From contig OZ240241.1 in NCBI GenBank assembly GCA_965198115.1, positions 3,328,001 to 3,392,000 of the forward strand: DNA of 64,000 bases, in the 5' to 3' direction. The notes beneath the pieces were generated by a model. It saw only the letters and a list, made by a program, of their open reading frames with translations, did not search any database and had not been told where the DNA came from. Below, in pieces: positions 31,068 through 47,882 of the stretch (its first letter is position 1; every line of letters starts with the position of its first letter). Made by a program: the position numbers and the translations under genes. This DNA comes from Candidatus Latescibacterota bacterium. GTDB taxonomy: Bacteria > Latescibacterota > UBA2968.

Positions 31068-31928
31068 TCAGGCCAGGCTAAGCGCAGCGCGTTTCGGCAA
31101 CGCCGCCTGAAACGCCGCCACGCTCTCGAAATCATTCAAGGCGTGCCGCAAGTGCAGCGGCTCCGGCTGGCGATACACCGCGTGGATCGCGCGGCGAATC
31201 CGCTTCGTCTTCCGAATCGTCGCGCAGTGGTAGTTGAGCAGATTGAACATCACGGCCGATCCTGCCGGGGCGTGCACATCGACGCCTCCGATCCGTCGCG
31301 GGCGTTCACGCCCGAACGAATCCATCCATCGCGGTTTCTCCGGATGCACATAAGCCGTCTCGCCATCGGCGATCATCAAGGGGTTATCCCCCCAAGTGCT
31401 TTCTCCCCGCTTCTTGGGCCTATGGCGCTTCGTCTCCGCGCTTTCGGGAATGATGCTCGTGCAGTGGGTCGTCTCATCCACGTCGTCCAGGTAGTAGATC
31501 GTCTGGATCCCCGAAGCGAAGTAATCGTTCTGGTCAGCCCCCTCGCAGATGCCGCCGTATTCCCGGTGCCACAGGCGTGACAGCGCCAGCGGATCGTCAT
31601 CGATGTCCTCGGGCGCATCCGCGTCGCACGCTTCCCGTCGCATAAAGCTGAAGCTGCTGAATCGGACGCCCTTCCCCAGAATGGCTTCGATCAAGGGCCA
31701 CGTGTTGGGATGATAGATCACGCGGTCGAACACATCGATCCGGTGCAGGATAGACACTCCGTGCCCGATCGCGTCGTGTCCGGGCCGCTCACCCCATCTC
31801 CCAGTCCTTCGGATGGCAGTCTCGTCAGCATCCATCCCGTCGTTGATCGTCTTCACCTCTTCGGGTGAGAGAGCGCCCTCGATTACGACGTATCCGTTGT
31901 CAGCAAAATGTTTGAGTTGTTCGGTCAT
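31068..31928 (-). CDS. Phytanoyl-CoA dioxygenase (PhyH)-family Fe(II)/2OG enzyme, paralog 1
   Basis: FADNGYVVIEGALS, WHRE, YYLDDV, AGSAVMFN...HCA. Confidence 0.85.
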   Translation of the reverse strand: MTEQLKHFADNGYVVIEGALSPEEVKTINDGMDADETAIRRTGRWGERPGHDAIGHGVSILHRIDVFDRVIYHPNTWPLIEAILGKGVRFSSFSFMRREACDADAPEDIDDDPLALSRLWHREYGGICEGADQNDYFASGIQTIYYLDDVDETTHCTSIIPESAETKRHRPKKRGESTWGDNPLMIADGETAYVHPEKPRWMDSFGRERPRRIGGVDVHAPAGSAVMFNLLNYHCATIRKTKRIRRAIHAVYRQPEPLHLRHALNDFESVAAFQAALPKRAALSLA

Positions 31929-32083
31929 AGGATATCCTTTTGAAACCAGGAACACGAAGGCGCGAAGACGCGAAAAAGATCAGAATACCATCTCCTGACG
32001 CGGGAACATCTCCCAGCCTGGGACCCAGCCCAAACTCTGGAGAGTGACTTGCTTATCTCTGCGGTCTCTGCGTTGAAAGGATT

Positions 32084-32935
32084 TCAGATCTTCCCGATGC
32101 TGGCGCGTTTGGGCATTGCCGATTGAAAGTGCTCCACACTCTTCCACGGATCGACGATGGCGTGGCGGGAGTGGACGGGTTCGGGCTGACGATATCGGAC
32201 GTGAACCGTGCGGCGAATGTTTTCCGTCCTCCGAATCGTGCCGCAGTGCCAGTTCGCGTTGTTGAACACGACGGCCGTACCCGCCTTCCCGAGCACATCC
32301 ACCCCACCGATCCGGCGCGGATTCTCTCGCCCGAATGAATCCATCCACAGCGGCTTGTCCGGATCCACGTAGGACGTCTCGCGATCGTCGATCCGATACT
32401 CCCCTTCCTTCGTCTTCGGGAACTGTCGCTTTGTCTCCACACTCTCCGGGATGAGCGTCGTGCAGTGCGTCGTCTCATCCACATCGTCCAGGTAGTAGAT
32501 GATCTGGATCGCGGGCGTGAAGTAATCGTTCTTGTCCGCGCCCTCGACACAGCCTCGATCTTCGCGATGCCACTGACGTGACAGCACGGTGGGATCGCCA
32601 CCGTCCAGGTCGTCTGGCGGATCGGCCAGACACGGCTCGCGCCGCAGGAAGGACATTCCGGAAACCTGCACACCATCACCAATGATCGCGCGCACCAGCG
32701 GCACGGCGTTCGGATGATGGATCACGCAGTCCAGTGCTTCGGTTCGATGCAACAATTCCGGCGCCACGTTTCCTACCGCATCGTGGCCCGGACGTGGTTT
32801 CATCACCCACTTGTCGGGATGCGCCCTTGCATCGGCGTCGATCCCGTCGTTGATCTTGGCGATCTCTTCCGGAGATAGGGCGCCGTGGAGGACGGTGTAA
32901 CCGTTTTCAGCGAAATGTTTCAGGTGTTCGTCCAT
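32084..32935 (-). CDS. PhyH-family Fe(II)/2OG enzyme, paralog 2
   Basis: True start MDEHLKHFAENGY (the ORF-track N-terminus is IS-derived); WHRED, WHCG. Confidence 0.85.
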   Translation of the reverse strand: MDEHLKHFAENGYTVLHGALSPEEIAKINDGIDADARAHPDKWVMKPRPGHDAVGNVAPELLHRTEALDCVIHHPNAVPLVRAIIGDGVQVSGMSFLRREPCLADPPDDLDGGDPTVLSRQWHREDRGCVEGADKNDYFTPAIQIIYYLDDVDETTHCTTLIPESVETKRQFPKTKEGEYRIDDRETSYVDPDKPLWMDSFGRENPRRIGGVDVLGKAGTAVVFNNANWHCGTIRRTENIRRTVHVRYRQPEPVHSRHAIVDPWKSVEHFQSAMPKRASIGKI

Positions 32936-32979
32936 ACGATCGTCTGGTTGTCGTATCGGTTCACGCCAAATAAAAGGTT

Positions 32980-33006
32980 TAGGGACGGTTCGCGAACCGT
33001 CCCTAC
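32980..33006. repeat. GTAG-type REP palindrome
   Basis: TAGGGACGGTTCGCGAACCGTCCCTAC perfect palindrome next to the CTAG insertion hotspot. Confidence 0.65.
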
Positions 33007-33202
33007 TAGCCTGAATCATGCATGAATTTGAGTTTAGGTTGTTTTGGAGTGATGTGATCACGCACAGGATTTGTTCTCGGCTTCTTCGGATGTCCAAGGT
33101 CCCGTAAGCGGTCTCTACGAGTCGCAAGAGTCACGATTTTCGTCCGGAACAGGTGTTGTTTTGCGACGTGTACATAGCTGTCCCCGGTATAGATCGGCGT
33201 TG

Positions 33203-37037: not shown

Positions 37038-37889
37038 TTAAATTCTCTCGATACTTGCGCGTTTCGGAAGTGCGGCCTGGAACTCCGCCACACTCTTGAA
37101 CGGGTCCTTCAACGCGTGCGTGGAGTGAACGGGCTCCGCCTGACGATATCGGACGTGAACCGCCCGCCGGATCCGCTCCGTCTTCCGGATCGTCGCGCAG
37201 TGCCAGCTTGCGTTGTTGAACAGAAGACCGGATCCCGCTTTCGCGTGTACGTCGACCCGACCGATCCGGCGCGGGAACTCGCGACCGAACGCGTCCGGCC
37301 ACAGCGGCTTGTCAGGATCCACATAGCTCGTGCGCGCATCGTCGATTCGCAGAACCCCTTCGGTCGTTTTGGGCAGCGTTCGTTTCGTCTCGGCGCTCTC
37401 CGGAATCACGCTCGTGCAGTGCGTCGTCTCGTCCACGTCATCCAGATAGTAGATAATCTGAATCGACGGCGCGAAGTACAAGTTCCTGTCGGCGCCCTCT
37501 ACGGTGCCGCTGTCCTCCCGATGCCACTGTCGCGACAGGGCGAGCGGATCGCCCCCGTCAATATCCTCCGGCGGGTCGGCCAGACACGGTTCACGACGCA
37601 TAAAGGTCAACCCGGAGCACAGACAGCCCTCGCCCAGGATCGCCTTTACAAGCGGGATCGCCGACGGATGATGGATCACACCATCCAACGCTTGAGTCCG
37701 ATGCATCAGCCCGGGGGCGTCGTTACTCACCGCATCGAAGCCCGGACGAGGCCTCATCACCCACTCCTCCGGATGTGTGGCCCTGTCCGAGTCGATCCCG
37801 TCGTTCACCCGTGCGATTTCCTCGGGCGACAACGCCTCGTGCAGGACGACATAGCCGTTTTCCTTGAAATGATCGAGATATTCGTCCAT
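37038..37889 (-). CDS. PhyH-family Fe(II)/2OG enzyme, paralog 3
   Basis: FKENGYVVL, WHRED, WHCA; highly similar to paralog 2. Confidence 0.85.
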   Translation of the reverse strand: MDEYLDHFKENGYVVLHEALSPEEIARVNDGIDSDRATHPEEWVMRPRPGFDAVSNDAPGLMHRTQALDGVIHHPSAIPLVKAILGEGCLCSGLTFMRREPCLADPPEDIDGGDPLALSRQWHREDSGTVEGADRNLYFAPSIQIIYYLDDVDETTHCTSVIPESAETKRTLPKTTEGVLRIDDARTSYVDPDKPLWPDAFGREFPRRIGRVDVHAKAGSGLLFNNASWHCATIRKTERIRRAVHVRYRQAEPVHSTHALKDPFKSVAEFQAALPKRASIERI

Positions 37890-39032: not shown

Positions 39033-39757
39033 GGCTGAAGCCCGACGCTGGAAACACAAAGCCGGCTAAAGCCGGCTATTCCAACCCCGGAAATCGGGAG
39101 AGCTCGAACCCTGTCCGCACCAGCGATTCGCTCGTCTACCTACGTGGCTACGACTACTACAACATCAACTTCTGGCAGAAGCTCAGACGATTCCAATTCG
39201 GAATCGTCGACGACCCCTTCTGAGTACAGCAAGCGTTTCCTTCCACGGATTTATTTTTACCAGGGATTCGTCCCACTCGAACATTGCGTAGCGGCCCAAA
39301 ATAGACCCGGCCAAGAAGCGAACCGGGGTGACAATCGTTGTTCGTTGGTGATGCGCGAAGCGAGAACTCCCAGTAAATCGACCTGCAGATCCTCCTCCTC
39401 CCTTAGCCGCTATCCTCGATCCCGATTCACCCACCGAACCCAACCTCCGTGTTCTCAGTCGTATGTTTTTCGTCTTTTTTTTGAACCGCGCTCCATCGGC
39501 CGGTGTCCTGACAGGTGAACGCCCAGAAAACGCGCGTGTAACCACCTCTCAGGAAGGAGCGTCCAATGTAACCCACGACGCCGGTATCAAGTAGCGATGG
39601 GGTTTTTTGGTGACGTGACAAAAACGTGTAGGCTTCTTGAGTACGTCGCACTTCGACGGAGTTCATCCTGAGCGCAGTCGAAGGGCTCAGTGTGACGTAT
39701 CCATCCTCGGTGTAATCTGTGTGTTCTGTGGTTCCACCCCGTCTTTCAAGGACATCG

Positions 39758-40342
39758 ATGACCGACGAAGACCTCCTCACCGCCATCGCAAAGCAAGATG
39801 CTGATGCCTTCGGGGAGTTCTTCAACCGCTTCGAGCCTCAAGTGATCCGTCACCTGACGCGTATCGTCAGAGATCCGGCAACCGCCGACGATCTGACTCA
39901 AGACGTCTTTTTCCGGGTCTGGGCGCGCGCTGGGCAGTGGTCGGGGCGAGGCAGCGCGCGGAGTTGGCTGCTCACGATCGCCACAAATCTGGCCCTCAAC
40001 CACTTACGCACCGTTAAACGCCGCCGCGAGCAGCCTCTCGACCCTGGACCCGATCCTTACGCCGAAGGCGACGGGACCCACGCCCCCAGCTGGATGATCG
40101 ACGAAGCCGCCGTCGGCGCGGATGAGCAATACGAACAGACCGAGCGACGGCAGTTGCTCAACGGCCTCGTCGACGAGCTGCCCGAAGACAAGCGCGAGGT
40201 CTTACGCCTCGTCTACGACGCCGAAATGGATGTAAGGGATGTCGCCGACCACCTCGGCATCCCAGAAGGCACCGTAAAATCCCGAATGCACCACGCGCGA
40301 CGACGACTGGCCGATCGATGGCGCAACATCGAAAAACCCTGA
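39758..40342 (+). CDS. ECF-type RNA polymerase sigma-70 factor
   Basis: Region 2 ADDLTQDVFFRVW...SWLLTIATNLALNHLR; region 4 LPEDKREVL...VADHLGIPEGTVKSRMHHAR; AAGGA SD. Confidence 0.93.
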   Translation: MTDEDLLTAIAKQDADAFGEFFNRFEPQVIRHLTRIVRDPATADDLTQDVFFRVWARAGQWSGRGSARSWLLTIATNLALNHLRTVKRRREQPLDPGPDPYAEGDGTHAPSWMIDEAAVGADEQYEQTERRQLLNGLVDELPEDKREVLRLVYDAEMDVRDVADHLGIPEGTVKSRMHHARRRLADRWRNIEKP

Positions 40343-40458
40343 ACCACCCTTCGACTACGCTCAGGACAAGCTCCGACACCAAGACACGAAGAAAACCGGA
40401 AGGAAAGGCATGAGCCCCCACTCAGCTTGCGGACATAACCCCCACCTTCTGGGTGAAT

Positions 40459-40511
40459 CAGCCCACTTCAGTGGGCTTCGCTAAAGTTGCGTGGGACTTC
40501 AGTCCCACGCG
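40459..40511. repeat. REP-like double palindrome between the sigma and polymerase genes
   Basis: AGCCCACTTCAGTGGGCT...GCGTGGGACTTCAGTCCCACGC; related units at ~9745-9795 and ~39030-39078. Confidence 0.6.
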
Positions 40512-40575
40512 GCTTGGCCGATTACCGACACTTCGACTCGCGCTCAGTGTGACGGTATGTCGGCCTTCCTGAACT

Positions 40576-43500
40576 ATGAACACTCTCAATGAGGTGCGAA
40601 TGACAATCACTCCTGCAACACCCTGGCACAACACCTCCTACCAGACCTTCATCTCGAGCACGCTGCCCGACCTGTTGGCCGATCGTGTCCCGCTCGATGG
40701 CTACAGCGTCAACCGGGTCGACGACTACAACGTCAACGTCGAACTGTCGCTCAGGACGAAGGGCGGCTCGATCGATCTGTCGTTCGCTGACGTGCCGGCC
40801 CCGGATGAACACGGCCTGTTCTTTGTGGACGGACAACAGGAGAAAAATGGCGGCTACCGCGTTGTCGTTCCGTATCCCGACGGGTTCGACCTCACAAAGG
40901 CGAACATCCTGTGCGTCGGCGAACAGTTGGCCGAATTCGTGGAGGCACGACTGGGGGATGCGCCGAACGATCTCGACTGGGATCAGAAGCTGGCGGAAGC
41001 CTGGCTGCCGGTCACCGGCTGGCTGGACACGTTCCTTCGGACCCAGCCCACGTCCCAATTTATCCAGAGCACGAACTGGCTGGACCGCACAACGCATCTT
41101 CGTCGCATCACGCTCGTCCCGATCGCCTTCGCCGAGGGTCCGTCGGAGAAGACGCACATCATACCCTCACTCCCCACGAGATCGCACTACCTGATGTCGC
41201 CCGAAGACGCGGCGGCGGGCTCGAAGCGTGGGTTGACCTGTCCCATCATCCAGCCCGAAGGCCCGAATATGGGTTGGATCTTCGAAGTCGCCCGGGGCGC
41301 GGAGATCAGGGACGGACGGCTCGTCCGCATCGAAGGGGCAGATCCCGCGGACGCGTCCCTCAACGTCGGCTGGAGCGGCTCGATGATTCCCTTCATCGAG
41401 CACACCGACTCCGCCCGCTTGCTAATGGGCGCGAATATGATGCGTCAGTGGATTGCTCCGAGGAACACGGCTGGTCTCCCGTCCGTCCAAACTGCGCAGA
41501 CCTATCCCGAAGATCTCGTCGACGCGCTCTCGAATCCACCCGGCCCGACACCCGAACCTGCGCTCGTCCAGACGGGAACGGAGCCGGATGACGCCGACTA
41601 CTGGGCGGGCTATAACCTGCTGACTGCCTTCACGATGTGGGACGGTGACACGTTCGAGGACGGCGTCGTCTTGTCCGAGTCCGCGGCGGCAAGGATGGCC
41701 TTCCCAGCCGACGTCGATCTCGGTGATAAGTTGAGCACGCGTCACGGCTTCAAGGGCGTCGTGTCCCGTATTCTACCCGACTCTGAAATGCCCGCGCTTC
41801 CCGACGGTACCGCGGTCGACACCATCATTTCGCCGACCAGTCTGATCTCGCGAGTCAACTTTGGTCAGCTGCGAGAAGCTGTGATGGGCCGCATCGCTCA
41901 CGCCGAAGGCCAGCCTGCGGTCGTGCCCGCCTACGAGGCACTGTCAATCGAAGACTTGAAGAGCCGGTTGAAAGGGGTGGGGCTGCCCGAGGATGGAATG
42001 GACCAACTGACACTCGGCGGAGAGGCGCTCCCGCACAGATCGACGGTGGGCTACGTCTACTGGGGGCGCCTCACGCATCTGTCACGGCACAAGCTGCGCG
42101 GTACGGACCACCTACTGGGGCCCGTGCTCTTCGGTGAGCGGCAATACTCAACGCTGAAAGGTCTCAAAGCCTACGCCACGATCGGCGATCTGCTACGACG
42201 CGCAACGGAAGCAGGCAACACCGTCCCGACACTGGACAACGTCACGGCCAAACTCAACGAGGCCGGCATTGTCCTCGAGCGGAATGGAGAGGAAGTCACG
42301 TTCTCGACAAACGGCACGAAAGGCTATACCCTCGCCTCGCCGGTCCCTCACCCCTGGCATCCCGAGGTCGAACTGAGGGCCGTCAGCGAAGGCGAAGGCG
42401 ATCTCTACGACGACGTCGTCGCGGCGGACGAGCGGGTGCGTCGCCTCGACGACAACGCGCCCGCCCCGCTGAAGTCGGCGGCGATCGAGCGTCTTGCCGC
42501 GGCCGTCGGCGACTATCTGGACGCATCCCTCACACCGAGCGATCTAGAAATCGACGCGCGTGTGCCCGATAGCGGCCGTGCCGTCATCGTCCCCGGTGCC
42601 GAGCTCGCACTCGATCAGATCGGTGTCCCTCGCGAAATGGCGTGGACCCTGTTCGGTGAAGACGTCGCGTCGGAGCTAGGCGAGGACGCCGTCGAGAAGC
42701 GAACGAAGGCTGCTACGTCACGTCTGGAGGAAATCGCCAACTCCGCCCATCTCCTGATCCACAAGGGCGTCCACATCACAGCCACGTCTGTGCTCGCTGC
42801 GCGGCCCGTCCTCATCGACGATCCCGTTATCCGCATCCATCCGATGCACTGCGCGCTTCTGGATGCCGACTTCGACGGCGATCAGGTCGCCGTCACGCGG
42901 CTCAAGTCAGAAGACGCCGTTCGCGAATGTGTGGAACGACTTTCCATCGCCGGCCACCTGCGTCACACACCCGACGCGCTTCGAATCCTCATCGGACGGC
43001 CGCACGGAATCAACTGGGGCTTGACCCGGCTTGCCAGAACGGCTGACGGTCGGAAGAAGATGACAGACATAGCCGGCGAAGCGATCGGTGAGGATTACGG
43101 TGGTCGCCGGTCTTATCTCGCCCTGCTCGAGCGCATCTTCGAGCGGGAAGGCGACAACGACGAGGGCTTGGCTAGAACGTTCGCCATCTACGACGGCCTG
43201 ATGCGACTCGGGCTCCAGGCGTGCAAGGAATCGGGCGTCTCCATCAACCCGTTCCTCGGTGCCTCTCTCGATCTGCCCGCGCCACCGCAATCCGACGATC
43301 TCGAATTGATGCATATATACAAGGAAGAACTCATCGCCGCGCTCAATCAGCATTCGGATCCCGATGACGGCGATGTCGGCACCTTCAACAGCTTCCGGCT
43401 CACAGGAACACGCGGCAGCGATGGGCAATACGTCCTCTACTTCGGCGCCATCGGCCACGTCGAGGGCGTCAACGTTCGTCACGGCTACATCAAAGGCCTC

Positions 43501-43740
43501 GACGTCGACGAAACCGCCGCCCTCAGCGCGAGAACAAGAGCCGCCATCGCCAGCGCCAACCGACAGATGGCCTCCTTCGACGATCGCCCGACCCTTCCCG
43601 GCCGCTCCTACGGCGTCATCGCAAGAGCGCGCAGAAGCGATCGCCCTGGCGTCGTCTTCGCACGGGCAGCCGCCAGAGGTGAAGTCGATCCCTTGGAGGA
43701 TGTTGATGCGCGGATCTTGTGTGGCTTGCCGGTGACATAG
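40576..43740 (+). CDS. Miniature single-chain RNA-polymerase-like protein: fused RpoB-core and RpoC-core (two-barrel nucleotidyltransferase)
   Basis: Collinear beta motifs (SQFIQSTNWLDRTTHLRRI, PEGPNMG, RLLMGANMMRQ, FEDGVVLS, GDKLSTRHGFKGVVSRI, LPDGTAVD, SRVNFGQL, VGYVYWGRLTHL) followed by beta-prime motifs (LASPVPHPW, SGRAVIVPG..L.LDQIGVP, IHPMHCALLDADFDGDQVAV, GTRGS, AAARGEVDPL). Confidence 0.9.
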   Translation: MNTLNEVRMTITPATPWHNTSYQTFISSTLPDLLADRVPLDGYSVNRVDDYNVNVELSLRTKGGSIDLSFADVPAPDEHGLFFVDGQQEKNGGYRVVVPYPDGFDLTKANILCVGEQLAEFVEARLGDAPNDLDWDQKLAEAWLPVTGWLDTFLRTQPTSQFIQSTNWLDRTTHLRRITLVPIAFAEGPSEKTHIIPSLPTRSHYLMSPEDAAAGSKRGLTCPIIQPEGPNMGWIFEVARGAEIRDGRLVRIEGADPADASLNVGWSGSMIPFIEHTDSARLLMGANMMRQWIAPRNTAGLPSVQTAQTYPEDLVDALSNPPGPTPEPALVQTGTEPDDADYWAGYNLLTAFTMWDGDTFEDGVVLSESAAARMAFPADVDLGDKLSTRHGFKGVVSRILPDSEMPALPDGTAVDTIISPTSLISRVNFGQLREAVMGRIAHAEGQPAVVPAYEALSIEDLKSRLKGVGLPEDGMDQLTLGGEALPHRSTVGYVYWGRLTHLSRHKLRGTDHLLGPVLFGERQYSTLKGLKAYATIGDLLRRATEAGNTVPTLDNVTAKLNEAGIVLERNGEEVTFSTNGTKGYTLASPVPHPWHPEVELRAVSEGEGDLYDDVVAADERVRRLDDNAPAPLKSAAIERLAAAVGDYLDASLTPSDLEIDARVPDSGRAVIVPGAELALDQIGVPREMAWTLFGEDVASELGEDAVEKRTKAATSRLEEIANSAHLLIHKGVHITATSVLAARPVLIDDPVIRIHPMHCALLDADFDGDQVAVTRLKSEDAVRECVERLSIAGHLRHTPDALRILIGRPHGINWGLTRLARTADGRKKMTDIAGEAIGEDYGGRRSYLALLERIFEREGDNDEGLARTFAIYDGLMRLGLQACKESGVSINPFLGASLDLPAPPQSDDLELMHIYKEELIAALNQHSDPDDGDVGTFNSFRLTGTRGSDGQYVLYFGAIGHVEGVNVRHGYIKGLDVDETAALSARTRAAIASANRQMASFDDRPTLPGRSYGVIARARRSDRPGVVFARAAARGEVDPLEDVDARILCGLPVT

Positions 43741-43825
43741 TCATCTGACCGACATACACGTCAAAGCCGCGGGTTGGTCGAGAGGACCGATCCGCGGCTT
43801 TTATTATCAGAAAGAAGTCGCCTGC

Positions 43826-43999
43826 TTGTCATTTCGACACGGTGTCACCCGCGACCAGGAAACACACCATCGCGATCTGCGGCGACCCGTGGAGAAATTC
43901 CTGCGCCTGGATGCAAGAGAGCCTGTCACGTTGTCCCTTCCCGCAGGGATCTCTCACCCGTGGCGAGGGCCGAGGCTCAAATCGGGTTCGAGATGACAA
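43826..43999. repeat. MITE-like palindromic element
   Basis: Ends TTGTCATTTCGA / TCGAGATGACAA, inner arms GAGAAATTCCTGCG / CGCAGGGATCTCTC; half-sites of the same class (CTCGAAGTGAC, CTCAGGATGAC) at ~22334, 23508, 24865, 39664, 40348. Confidence 0.6.
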
Positions 44000-44518
44000 A
44001 CTAGATGCGCGATCTGGATCCCACACGTCGGTTCACCAAGCTGCTGGGGAAGACTACCCACTCGACGCCTCTTCGCCCGGTGCCCTCGGTGGTAGGTTTT
44101 CAGTGTATTCTGTGTGCTCTGTGGTTCCCTCTCTCACTGGGCAGGCTCACCCAAATCCCGCGGAGTCCTAGGCCAATGGAACTTCTCCTCCCCCGTCAGC
44201 AGCGCCCGATGCTCTTCGGATATGGTCTTCACGAAGTCGGGATCGGGATCGTACCGGTTCCACGCCTGGAACATCGTGGGCATATACCCACCCAGAATGA
44301 GAAGGCGTTCCCTGTTCGACCGGATGATGCCCGCCGAATGCATCAGGGATTCGTAGAAGAGTAGCGTCGAGCCCGCCGGAGCTTCGACCTGATGGATCAT
44401 AGAAGGATCTTCCATTGCCGCATCCACGATCGCATCACGTGAAACGTCGGTCCCCACCTTGTGCGTCCCTGCGATGACCGTCGTCCCGCCGTCATCCGGC
44501 CCTAGATCCGTCAGATTA

Positions 44519-45812
44519 GGGTTTGCCACGAAATAAGTGCTGCACTTTTCAAGGTAATGATCTTACGCTCGGAGTGTGGACGTCGAAACTCTCCGAACGA
44601 AGTATGAAGCCTTGGCTCCGGTGCTGACGGAACGCACGCGTCGTCTGTGGGCCGCCACGGAAGCCGAAGCGTTGGGTCACGGTGGGATCGCGATTGTGGC
44701 TCTGGCGACAGGAATGTCCAGAGAGCGGATCTTTCGTGGCATTCAGGAGTTGAGGTCGGACGAACCTTTGGACCCGGCTCGCATCCGGCGTCCAGGCGGC
44801 GGTCGTAAGCGGAAGGCCGACACGGACCCGACGCTGTGGCAGGACCTGAATGATCTGGTCGAGCCAACGACTGCGGGGTCGCCTGACGACAATCCTCTGA
44901 GATGGACATCGAAGAGCACTCGCAAACTGGCCGCCGAGTTGCAAGCGATGGGGCATTCGGTGAGCCCCAGGATCGTTGCCAATCTCCTGCACGAACACGA
45001 TTACACGCTGCAGGCGAATCGGAAGACAAGGGAGGGATCTGCACACCCGGATCGGGACGCTCAGTTCGTTTACCTCGATGATCGGATTAGCCAGCAGCAG
45101 CAGCAGGGCCTTCCCGTTATCTCGGTGGACACCAAGAAGAAAGAGTTGATCGGCGACTTCAAGAATCCTGGCCGAGAATGGCGACCCAAGGGAGACCCGG
45201 AGCGTGTGAAGGTACACGATTTCATAGTGCCTGCTCAGGGCAAGGCGATCCCTTATGGAGTGTATGATCTGAGCCGTGATGAAGGCTGGGTAAGTGTCGG
45301 TATCGATCACGACACGGCCAGCTTCGCCGTGAATGCGATCCGAAGTTGGTGGAAGAACATGGGACGGCCCGCCTACGGCACTTCGACGCATCTGCTAATC
45401 ACGGCGGACGCAGGCGGCAGCAACGGCGCCAAGACGCGGCTGTGGAAGTGGGAGCTGCAGCGCTTTGCGAATCGCACTGGCCTGACGATCACCGTATGCC
45501 ACTACCCTCCTGGCACTAGTAAGTGGAACAAGATCGAACATCGCCTGTTCTCCTTCATCGCTATGAACTGGCGAGGCAAGCCCCTGGTCAGCCTGGCTGC
45601 AACCGTGAATCTCATTGCCGGAACGACCACTCAAGCCGGTCTCCGAGTACGCTCCGAGATCGACAAGCGACCCTACCCTAACGGGGTCAAGGTGACCGAT
45701 GAACAGATGACCCAAATCGATCTCACTCCGCACGATTTCCACGGCGACTGGAACTACACGATCCGGCCAATGGCTCAACATTGAGATCGACCGTTTATTT
45801 ATTCGCGAACCC
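44519..45812 (+). mobile_element. ISAzo13-family element
   Basis: Ends GGGTTTGC / GCGAACCC; 3-bp TSD TTA. Confidence 0.9.
44576..45784 (+). CDS. ISAzo13-family transposase
   Basis: RIRRPGGGRK, ISVDTKKKELIG, ITADAGGSNG, PPGTSKWNKIEHRLFS. Confidence 0.95.
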   Translation: MDVETLRTKYEALAPVLTERTRRLWAATEAEALGHGGIAIVALATGMSRERIFRGIQELRSDEPLDPARIRRPGGGRKRKADTDPTLWQDLNDLVEPTTAGSPDDNPLRWTSKSTRKLAAELQAMGHSVSPRIVANLLHEHDYTLQANRKTREGSAHPDRDAQFVYLDDRISQQQQQGLPVISVDTKKKELIGDFKNPGREWRPKGDPERVKVHDFIVPAQGKAIPYGVYDLSRDEGWVSVGIDHDTASFAVNAIRSWWKNMGRPAYGTSTHLLITADAGGSNGAKTRLWKWELQRFANRTGLTITVCHYPPGTSKWNKIEHRLFSFIAMNWRGKPLVSLAATVNLIAGTTTQAGLRVRSEIDKRPYPNGVKVTDEQMTQIDLTPHDFHGDWNYTIRPMAQH

Positions 45813-46462
45813 TTAGTCAGCGCCTTGACAAACGAGAAGTGGTAGAGACCCCGTTCCATATGACTGTATGCCGGGTTGATTCCACGATGGAAGCCAAACC
45901 GCTCCCCACCATCGGCCACTGGCCGGCGTATGTGGGCATCCGATTGCTGGAGCCGGGCCGGGCCACCGATGATTTCCTCTGCCATCCCGACAATGAACGG
46001 GCTCGTCAGGTAATCGAAAAAACACTGTGCCAGGTGCGGCAGGTTATCGATCCGGAAGAACTCCTCCGTCGTACTCGTGTTGAAGCAGTTCGGCCCGGGC
46101 ATTTCTCCGTTCCGGCGAAACTGATCCTCTATCTCATACAGCGTCTCCTTCAGCACATCGATCTCGTCCTGCGACAACACCTGTTCGACAATGACGTACC
46201 CGTAGATCTCGATGTGCAATCGCTGAGCGGGCGTCAGCGCGGGAAACGACTTTGCTTTCGGTTCTGCGGTCATTGATTCCGATCCCTTGGTTCCGTGGAC
46301 GTCACAGTGATGCCCATATGATAGGCCGGGCAGCGGCCAAGCCATCGCTCCTCTCACTGCAGTTCCGTAGGAATTCACACTACGATGGTGGTGCGAATGC
46401 GTCGGCCACCGAGACGAGGGACTCAAGCCCACCGCTTGGCCGCAAAAGTCGGGTCGAAAAAT

Positions 46463-47882
46463 GGCTCTATCCGGGTTTCTCAACGGTGAAACTATAGAAT
46501 GACAAGGTCATAGATCGTTCCCTACGCTTGGTTGTGTGTGTAGGACAATCAAAGCGAAGGGGGTGCGACCTATGACCGGGAGCAGATTACTATCGAAACT
46601 GCTGAGATTCAAGGGGTTCCGTGTTGTCAGCTGGTGGTTTGAGGGGAGAAGCTGTTTCGTCATCGCCGTAAAGCCACATAAGAATGGTTGTTGTTGTCCG
46701 GAGTGCGGCCGTCGAGGTAAAATCGTCCGCACAATGCCCCATCCGCGTCGGTGGCGTGACATTCCGGTGTGCGGGTGGAGGGTCTGGCTTCTCTACCATC
46801 CTCGGGAGATTCGGTGTCCTACCCACGGTCGTGTGGTCGAGGAGATTCCGTGGGCGGAGCGGTTCTCTCGGGTGACGTATCGCTTCGAGTATGCCATGCT
46901 GCGCTACTGCCAGACCATGACGCAGAAGGCGGCGTCCGAGTTACTGCGCATCTCTGCCTCGACGCTGTCGGATCTCCGTCACCGATCCATCACGCGGCTT
47001 CGTGAAGGTCATCGTATCCGAGGGCTCAAAACCATCGGGATCGACGAGATCTCCTACGCCAAGCGTCACAGGTACGCCACGCTCGTTTACGATCTGGACC
47101 GCTCCTGCGTGGTGTGGGTTGGCCGCGGCAGGGCGCGTAAAACGATCGATCGGTTCTTCACAGAGGCTCTCAGTCCCTACCGGAGATCCAAGATCGAGTG
47201 GGCCTGCTGCGACATGAGCGAAGCTTACATCGGAGCCATCCAGGAACACTGTCCGAATGCCAAGCTGGTCCTCGATCGCTTTCACATCGTCAAGGCTCTC
47301 AATGCCGCCGTTGACGAGGTCCGTAAGGACCAGTGGCGTAAAGCTGCCCCGGATGAGCGCAAAGCCATGAAGGGCCTCCGATGGCTCCTCTACCGGCACT
47401 CAGCGACACGCTCCAGAGGGGATACTCGGACACTCAAAGCACTGGAGAAGGCGAACTACCGAATCTATAGAGCCTGGAGACTCAAGGACGAGTTCGAGCA
47501 GTTCTGGGAATACAAAGCGCCCTGGGCTGCCGAACGCTTCCTGAAATGCTGGACGACGTCCGCACTCAGAAGTCGACGTGAACCCCTGCGAAAGTTCGTC
47601 AGGACCCTGCGACAGCACTTCTTCGGCGTCCTCGCATTCGTGAACACGCGTCTTACCAACGCCATCGCCGAAGGCCTCAACCGAATCGTCCAAATCGTCA
47701 AGAACCGAGCCAGCGGATTCCGCACACTCGACGCATTCAACGATATGATCTTCCTTACCGTCGGAGACATAAACATCCCTGAGCAGATTCCGAAGAGGTT
47801 CCGCACACGCTAACCGCGCCCCCATGCCAGGAACCACGGCACCTTCACCCACTTCATCTCGTTGAGAGATCCGGATATAGCC
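46463..47882 (+). mobile_element. ISL3-family element (copy 3)
   Basis: Same IRs; 8-bp TSD CGAAAAAT. Confidence 0.95.
46536..47813 (+). CDS. ISL3-family transposase
   Basis: Near-identical to the other two copies. Confidence 0.95.
   Translation: MCRTIKAKGVRPMTGSRLLSKLLRFKGFRVVSWWFEGRSCFVIAVKPHKNGCCCPECGRRGKIVRTMPHPRRWRDIPVCGWRVWLLYHPREIRCPTHGRVVEEIPWAERFSRVTYRFEYAMLRYCQTMTQKAASELLRISASTLSDLRHRSITRLREGHRIRGLKTIGIDEISYAKRHRYATLVYDLDRSCVVWVGRGRARKTIDRFFTEALSPYRRSKIEWACCDMSEAYIGAIQEHCPNAKLVLDRFHIVKALNAAVDEVRKDQWRKAAPDERKAMKGLRWLLYRHSATRSRGDTRTLKALEKANYRIYRAWRLKDEFEQFWEYKAPWAAERFLKCWTTSALRSRREPLRKFVRTLRQHFFGVLAFVNTRLTNAIAEGLNRIVQIVKNRASGFRTLDAFNDMIFLTVGDINIPEQIPKRFRTR

Follow-up and report, generated by a model that had tools for sequence, protein, structure and literature searches.

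The subject of this report is a two-gene cassette in a 64,000-nucleotide stretch of DNA from Candidatus Latescibacterota bacterium (GTDB lineage Bacteria; Latescibacterota; UBA2968; NCBI GenBank assembly GCA_965198115.1, contig OZ240241.1, positions 3,328,001 to 3,392,000 of the forward strand), hereafter called the window, to whose first letter all positions refer. The cassette comprises a gene for a sigma factor of the extracytoplasmic function (ECF) type and, downstream of it, a gene for one fused protein chain, here termed the mini-polymerase, in which a bacterial RNA polymerase (RNAP) beta core is followed in collinear order by a beta-prime core. The open reading frame (ORF) of the latter runs over 1054 codons (40576-43740), the ATG at 40600 being the probable start that matches the 1046-residue form on record. 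The source genome is a single 8.43-Mb contig in which the host's own rpoB (1281 residues) and rpoC (1364 residues) are intact, and we propose that the cassette is likely to represent a second, minimal transcription machine beside the host RNAP. Its features are the following.

39482..39507, + strand: predicted ECF promoter TGAAC-N15-GGTGTC, from a motif search of upstream regions
39649..39697, no strand assigned: dispersed short repeat between promoter and sigma gene, displacing the promoter to about 275 nucleotides from the start codon
39758..40342, + strand: ECF sigma factor of 194 residues with sigma2, sigma4 and a conserved linker (Pfam Sigma70_r2 8.7e-18, r4_2 9.1e-14)
40085..40102, + strand: linker motif P-x-W-M-I-D of the sigma, specific to this family and preceded by an acidic loop
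40217..40219, + strand: Asp154 of sigma4, which aligns with the flap-tip contact L151 of E. coli sigmaE
40600..43740, + strand: single-chain beta/beta-prime mini RNA polymerase (1046 residues; 1054 from the ATG at 40576)
40600..42291, + strand: beta-like half with beta1 lobe, RNA-binding regions, barrel B and beta C-terminus, by hhalign to E. coli beta
41653..41730, + strand: FED...GDK flap deletion junction with the E813/D814 and K1065 equivalents (FED 41653-41661, GDK 41722-41730)
42292..42357, + strand: beta/beta-prime fusion junction, with a weak profile match to beta-prime 101-128 and a structural range that starts at 100-104 in trimmed rows
42400..42528, + strand: clamp helices, the coiled coil on which sigma2 docks (helices 609-623 and 630-651, aligned to beta-prime 266-313)
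42763..42765, + strand: Lys730 in place of beta-prime R425
42862..42882, + strand: DADFDGD, with the catalytic Asp triad intact and N458 replaced by Asp
43504..43581, + strand: bridge helix, kept to about beta-prime S793 (modelled helix 977-1002, and alignment)
43582..43614, + strand: unconserved loop of 11 residues in place of trigger loop, second zinc site and jaw (about 525 residues)
43615..43728, + strand: region-H-like end (beta-prime about 1318-1355), weak by sequence, with a structural range that ends at 1358
43763..43808, + strand: terminator-like hairpin with U-rich tail (-32.4 kcal/mol, z -6.9), possibly shared with a converging gene

Both halves of the mini-polymerase are recognisably those of a cellular enzyme. 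Pfam assigns Rpb2_6 to the first half (4.3e-35) and Rpb1_2 to the second (7.5e-13), the best sequence matches are to bacterial beta (4.9e-36, as compared with 2.4e-16 for archaeal) and beta-prime, and hhalign aligns the chain to the E. coli subunits in five blocks with probabilities of 97-99.9. The AlphaFold model of the whole chain, built from 94 sequences, is compact and confident (predicted local distance difference test, pLDDT, 93.3; predicted template-modelling score, pTM, 0.93), a second model of the C-half alone agrees with it, and the closest relatives among solved structures are bacterial. The N-half superposes on beta subunits with Z of about 28-30 and a root-mean-square deviation (rmsd) of 2.5-3.3 over 444-514 aligned residues. 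The C-half model superposes on bacterial beta-prime with 453-468 of its 480 residues (Z 27-28, rmsd about 5-6), spanning 101 to 1358 of beta-prime in the trimmed E. coli rows, and this superposition leaves no room for an added domain. We rejected an assembly artefact or a pseudogene as the origin of the fusion, given a short-read contig (possibly from the same sample) that spans 40527-44000 without any difference, and full-length relatives at 83-66% identity.

What sets this chain apart is the set of modules it has shed, which we followed through a non-redundant set of 91 members (<60% identity), a wider set of 262 family sequences, and 82 loci, in 74 of which both genes were delimited; in GTDB genomes a relative is encoded by 202 stretches, of which 80 were kept. 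An earlier note on this DNA, made from the letters alone, had reported that only 23 codons separate the FED aspartate from the GDK lysine, against about 250 residues in E. coli beta, and this reading stands: the D362-K385 spacing is 23 residues, as compared with 251 for D814-K1065 (FED 812, GDK 1063), and it is 23 in 254/262 family sequences, so that the loss is conserved rather than a matter of chance. The profile alignment fuses beta 829 straight to beta 1057, which identifies the missing part as the flap with its lineage insert. The same note's report that the beta/beta-prime junction has no Cys4 zinc finger is likewise borne out. The six cysteines of the window copy lie at 113, 222, 759, 785, 883 and 1049, with none between 223 and 758 and hence none at the junction, where a CxxC occurs in 1/262 family sequences, and the beta-prime part begins at about residue 101, just past the E. 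coli zinc ligands C70/72/85/88.

For the trigger loop, the earlier note was right about the absence and wrong about the coordinates: the bridge helix, which it had placed at 43474-43575, is modelled at 43504-43581, as helix 977-1002, followed by the 11-residue loop and by helices 1014-1020 and 1024-1034. The G766 equivalent lies 62 residues from the K1340 equivalent (574 in E. coli), and across the 91 members the bridge-helix start is separated from region H by a median of 64 residues (range 59-78). The trigger-loop motif is found in 0/262 family sequences. Structure prediction had been suggested as a check on whether another element fills the site, and in both AlphaFold models a cryptic trigger hairpin is absent and the unconserved loop follows the bridge helix. 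Nor does a separately encoded subunit appear to supply the lost parts, as searches with the flap, zinc finger, lobe and trigger segments matched only the host rpoBC in the genome and nothing in the 82 loci or the 262 family proteins; one weak match (E 0.001) to a missing-module segment fell in an unrelated frame and was discarded. Two further candidates were also considered. The window copy carries insertions at about 181-215 (fork loop 2) and 295-325, for which the family medians are 16 and 8 residues against 42 and 36 in the window copy; since most members lack them and the model of the first is poor, they do not provide a family-wide trigger substitute. The G-V-I-A-R at 1013-1017 may be a displaced end of the bridge helix, although a gapless fit to region H is simpler.

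The three losses named in the earlier note are thus real, but its list was incomplete. Also gone are the beta2 lobe, the first beta insert, switch 3, the zipper, the clamp head, the lid, the rudder and, in most family members, most of fork loop 2. Of beta-prime, residues 517-571 are missing too, as are a large part of the rim helices and the whole stretch between about 794 and 1318, jaw included. Aligned to the subunits of the host and of E. coli, the chain retains both barrels; of beta it also has the beta1 lobe, the RNA-binding regions and the C-terminus, and of beta-prime the clamp helices, a portion of the funnel, the bridge helix as far as about S793 and the end that corresponds to region H. 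The other deletion junctions have interquartile ranges of 0-3 residues among the 91 members, and the deletions are fixed across the family. By the architecture of RNAP, the flap, zinc finger, lid and switch 3 form the RNA-exit channel, the beta2 lobe, clamp head and jaw form the downstream-DNA channel, and further lost surfaces are sites for alpha and for secondary-channel regulators. The losses form coherent sets, namely RNA-exit channel, downstream-DNA channel and regulatory surfaces, and leave a "core of the core". The beta YDGxTG motif is present in 0/91 members and is, together with the deleted beta-prime 517-571, what we take to be the alpha contacts.

The catalytic centre has been retained through these reductions. 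Barrel A carries DFDGD at 765-769, with each Asp present in 87-88/91 members, and barrel B carries K385 and K393, the K1065 and K1073 equivalents, which are K or R in 89/91 and 87/91. The full catalytic set (Asp triad and the D814, K1065, K1073 and R1106 equivalents) is found in 80/91 members, and the RNA-contact residues R529, R687, Q688 and H1237, which grip the 3' end of the RNA, are kept in 85/91, 89/91, 87/91 and 82/91, at a time when only 123/1054 alignment columns reach 90% conservation. This pattern suggests selection for nucleotide addition on the hybrid. The residues that select the sugar have fared differently in the window copy, where Lys stands at R425, Val at P427 and Asp at N458. 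Across the family, R425 is Arg in 73/91 and N458 is kept in 53/91, with both lost in 13/91; in a quick tree of 28 rows the window copy sits on the longest branch (1.07) and groups (99) with sequences that also lost R425 and N458. According to PMC7862312, three residues contact the 2'-OH, namely R425, N458 and Q929, R425 being the main barrier to deoxynucleoside triphosphates (dNTPs) in E. coli; there R425K lowers selectivity by a factor of 17 in binding and of 25 in incorporation, and N458S has small effects. The same genome holds a second sigma and mini-polymerase cassette on the minus strand (C1:1427405-1431186, the mini-polymerase gene at C1:1427405-1430581; 38% and 52% identity), which keeps R425 and N458 and has a promoter variant with a 14-nucleotide spacer.

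The sigma gene is the only neighbour common to all mini-polymerase loci. An orthologue, 42-58% identical to the window sigma, lies upstream on the same strand in 76/80 loci, two of the four sigma-less loci being contigs that start at the polymerase gene, and the gap between the two genes is -45 to +20 nucleotides in 40/74 loci, often with the polymerase gene overlapping the sigma stop. We found no adjacent anti-sigma gene in these loci, the polymerase gene being the sole neighbour shared by all. The protein has the features of an ECF sigma factor (sigma2 and sigma4 only, about 200 residues, a bipartite self-promoter) together with two peculiarities. Its linker motif P-x-W-M-I-D occurs in 73/74 cognate sigmas and in 0/11 other ECF matches in the genome, and ECF linkers are described as normally unconserved in the part of PMC6648896 that treats them. 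That same account has ECF sigma2 docking on the clamp helices and sigma4 on the flap tip, the latter through contacts that include sigmaE L151; this position is acidic or polar in all 30 aligned cognate sigmas (0/30 hydrophobic) and hydrophobic in 13/15 ordinary ECFs of the genome. Linker motif and altered L151 position are consistent, at the level of sequence, with adaptation to a flapless partner. On the side of the polymerase the clamp helices are retained with a remodelled surface, R275 being replaced by Ala in 68/91 members and E295 in 63/91, and the equivalents of R278, L279, P288 and I291 are conserved. Co-folding of polymerase residues 242-1046 of the 1046-residue form with the whole sigma gave no answer, its score being 0.25 against a mark of 0.32, and we do not use it as evidence.

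An expectation-maximisation motif search of 31 non-redundant upstream regions yielded the promoter pattern, which, when scored on the loci, matches 71/74 of them as compared with 0/69 downstream control windows; the three non-matches have a 14-nucleotide spacer or one changed letter. The promoter directs into a 4.3-kb operon closed by the hairpin at 43763-43808, which is not among the calls of a consensus terminator scan. Short palindromic repeats flank the sigma gene at 39640-39705 (38 blastn matches), 40343-40400 and 40420-40560, with 38-52 genome matches each. A scan of 28 genomes with the pattern gave 34 matches against 7 for reversed controls, and the 30 that were fetched comprise 17 cassette promoters, 1 copy before a broken sigma and 12 sites elsewhere, 8 of the 10 inspected among the latter lying inside long ORFs. 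The cassette promoter is thus the only target found, a regulon of one, in this genome and, with little added, in the 28 others. Two individual sites may be recorded here. At L098 (G027:C139:6624 onward) a perfect cassette promoter precedes a broken cognate sigma start with no polymerase match in the stretch, a decayed second cassette, and at L087 (G028:C96:9549-9574) an intergenic match upstream of an ABC transporter ATPase gene is the single good candidate for a target beyond the cassette itself.

A homologue search returned 342 matches, and nearly all of the 120 matches listed are full-length, at about 1000-1075 residues; a library of 50% clusters contributed dozens more relatives. The 80 GTDB loci span Latescibacterota, Poribacteria, Gemmatimonadota, Chloroflexota, Armatimonadota, Planctomycetota, Kiritimatiellae and Hydrogenedentota, and within Latescibacterota 54/151 genomes carry the mini-polymerase, in an all-or-none manner by genus where samples are large (20/20, 0/15). 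This patchy spread over phyla suggests horizontal transfer; our trees are quick trees of 28 rows, with the sigma tree weakly resolved. We found no full-length relative in the viral contigs, phages or plasmids searched, no conserved mobility gene beside the loci, and no phage, plasmid or defence link, PADLOC returning no match. The literature searched held no description of the family, of which there may be an earlier mention, for example in Iyer and Aravind 2012; the portion of the ECF re-classification supplement that was searched gives no RpoB/RpoC context, and a search for deletion studies found nothing. Four proteins of 1613-2309 residues (P0254, P0262, P0263, P0267) show weaker matches to the beta block and are possibly other RpoBC fusions or partial reductions.

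Downstream of the cassette there is no conserved cargo, the next genes lying 14 on the minus and 13 on the plus strand by a crude ORF pick, and no helicase, replication or signalling gene is among the conserved neighbours. In 19 Latescibacterota loci (for example L001:3410-5283, L058 and L077) two extra same-strand genes lie directly upstream of sigma, one for a DksA/TraR-type C4 zinc-finger protein (about 320-345 residues, Pfam 4.9e-8) and one for a protein of about 310 residues and unknown kind; an atlas search with this clade-specific neighbour returned only hypothetical clusters. Eight loci (L040, L044, L045, L047, L048, L058, L077, L078) have an insertion of about 1.9 kb between sigma and polymerase, which at L044:4162-5958 holds an ABC exporter gene within the predicted operon. 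Around the window's cassette (31068-33127, 37038-37889, 44134-46483) lie related dioxygenase-like genes amid many transposase-like ORFs; the two that were scanned match PhyH, and an insertion at about 44530-45790 divides one of these genes.

By its two barrels and its fold matches, the mini-polymerase would belong to the two-barrel polymerases, and its sequence points to a cellular-type family that lacks the flap insert. With canonical RpoB/RpoC and an ECF sigma it shares the catalytic residues, the clamp helices, the funnel, half the bridge helix, a sigma2/sigma4 partner and a -35/-10 promoter, but it is one chain of 1046 residues rather than 2749, accessory and patchy, and stands beside an intact rpoBC. 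Its NCBIfam scores are far under the cut-offs (TIGR02013, rpoB, 136 vs 801 bits; TIGR02386, 59 vs 963.5), and of the features of a canonical core it has the clamp helices and lacks the flap insert, the zinc-binding domain, the trigger loop and a full bridge helix. Full-length RpoBC fusions (PRK09603, PRK14844) also place beta and beta-prime in one chain, yet these are housekeeping enzymes of about 2850 residues with all modules, and the mini-polymerase reaches 126 and 111 bits against their cut-offs of 5372 and 4632. Among single-chain structures, QDE-1, maize RDR2, the crAss-like phi14:2 virion RNAP, P23-45 gp96 and P74 gp62 share both barrels with it, at Z 7.6-10.7 over 271-436 residues and 8-11% identity, as compared with Z 18-26 and up to 28% for cellular subunits, and unlike the mini-polymerase these solved enzymes have no sigma partner. 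As laid out in part of PMC7824862, cellular enzymes carry the flap insert, and RNA-dependent RNA polymerases, YonO and NCgl1702-like enzymes are without it. The nearest functional precedent is YonO of the B. subtilis prophage SPbeta, which the account in PMC5467207 describes as having no trigger-loop homology and yet being more processive than E. coli RNAP, less accurate, and unable to proofread; the same account states that under mild conditions RNA synthesis does not require flap, lid, zipper, rudder or lobe, a list that closely matches the modules the mini-polymerase has shed. Both are single chains (YonO about 100 kDa) with a two-barrel centre and no trigger-loop homology. YonO, however, shares only a few catalytic residues with cellular RNAP in that description, from which, and not from direct sequence comparison, we set it apart, whereas the mini-polymerase has long blocks in common with the bacterial subunits, lies on the chromosome, and is linked with a sigma and an ECF promoter; because of these long blocks we do not regard it as a member of the YonO family.

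Catalytic conservation, a dedicated sigma and a promoter that leads into the 4.3-kb cassette together favour an active, sigma-dedicated single-chain mini-polymerase, with its own operon as the sole target found, a reading to which we give a probability of roughly 0.45. The enzyme would be independent of alpha, pair with the sigma encoded upstream and transcribe from TGAAC-N15-GGTGTC; sigma2 would dock on the clamp helices and melt the -10 element, and sigma4, kept in place by the conserved linker, would read the -35 element in the absence of a flap. Catalysis would proceed without a trigger loop and, as in YonO, probably at low fidelity, without proofreading, and with little response to pausing or to Gre/DksA-type factors. 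As no promoter copy other than that of the cassette was found, the loop would amplify itself. Several observations weigh against this proposal. In cellular RNAP the folding of the trigger loop makes catalysis about 10,000-fold faster, according to PMC7862312, and the family alignment reveals no conserved substitute. With rudder, lid, switch 3 and downstream channel jointly missing, a stable elongation complex is not assured. The host RNAP with the sigma could itself read a bipartite, fixed-spacer promoter, and 11/91 members are without part of the catalytic set. Of nine flap-contact positions only L151 separates cognate from ordinary ECFs, and the 30 cognate sigmas compared are kin, which makes this position a lead for co-adaptation and no proof of it. 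The window copy, on its long branch and with R425, P427 and N458 lost, may be degenerate. Finally, the promoter motif is not in excess elsewhere in the genome (10 matches vs 6-9 for wrong spacers), and with no further target the purpose of the machine is obscure.

The earlier note had concluded that the losses leave a slow or non-processive enzyme making short products, or else a promoter-melting or roadblock factor. As a whole this is only partly supported, and it overlooked the dedicated sigma and the promoter, both of which suggest transcription directed from a promoter. The short-product inference does not follow from the losses, since YonO is processive without trigger-loop homology; it nonetheless stays a live if unlikely rival, in which sigma and mini-polymerase open the promoter and the output is abortive oligonucleotides, primers or a persistent R-loop. 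The RNA-exit channel has lost all its walls, the rudder is gone as well, the retained RNA contacts are those close to the active site, the sigma linker has a conserved acidic loop resembling a sigma finger, and a regulon of one suggests that the product is not an mRNA programme. To set against this, the modules in question are reported dispensable in vitro in the section of PMC5467207 devoted to them, the promoter directs into an operon of 4.3 kb that ends in a hairpin, and the conserved neighbours include no gene for a helicase, for replication or for signalling. A pure roadblock or promoter-melting factor is disfavoured by the catalytic set kept in 80/91 members, and we consider improbable the related idea of a core mimic that, as anti-sigma or roadblock, sequesters sigma or occupies the promoter in negative feedback, with sigma working through host RNAP. 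The polymerase gene does take the usual anti-sigma slot, often overlapping the sigma stop, with no other conserved neighbour, with the clamp helices kept and with catalytic residues damaged in 11/91; but metal-, NTP- and RNA-binding residues conserved at about 35-45% identity over several phyla would be needless for a mere sink, and the flap-contact position of sigma is altered.

That the branch of the window copy is sugar-blind or DNA-synthesising, taking dNTPs and making DNA or mixed chains, we regard as a long shot. Q929 is gone with the trigger loop, the window copy has Lys and Asp at R425 and N458 and groups with sequences that also lost both, 13/91 members lack the two residues, and R425K by itself cuts selectivity in E. 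coli 17-fold/25-fold (PMC7862312, in part). Most members, however, keep R425 (73/91) and N458 (53/91), the loop varies freely in those 13, for which relaxed selection or decay fits as well, and the N458S effects reported in that study's relevant section are small. Slim to the same degree is the prospect of a two-protein machine orthogonal to the host whose window branch is sigma-dependent and promoter-directed and writes DNA or mixed chains. We hold least probable a division of labour in which sigma with host RNAP expresses the operon under stress and the mini-polymerase acts sigma-free on single-stranded, damaged or foreign DNA. It would account for the missing downstream-duplex channel, for the canonical sigma contacts R275 and E295 that are now Ala in most members, and for a promoter that resembles an ordinary ECF promoter, TGAAC being a known -35 in other ECF groups in the part of the ECF literature consulted. 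It sits poorly with the conserved R278, L279, P288 and I291 equivalents on the clamp helices, with the sigma-specific linker motif and altered sigma4 surface, and with the lack of a PADLOC match.

Bacteria are held to use one RNAP core for all genes. A conserved chromosomal core of 1046 residues that has a sigma to itself would amount to a second, minimal machine. It would also serve as a natural deletion map of RNAP, with which one could test what part of the core is needed for promoter-specific synthesis, by what means a -35 element is recognised when the flap is missing, and how an enzyme lacking a trigger loop carries out catalysis. The two genes and a 26-nucleotide promoter would form a compact orthogonal expression system, and the genome's two copies, one with and one without the sugar-selecting residues, offer a built-in comparison. 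Should the doubtful DNA-writing branch be real, it would represent a natural switch from RNA to DNA polymerase on a cellular RNAP scaffold.

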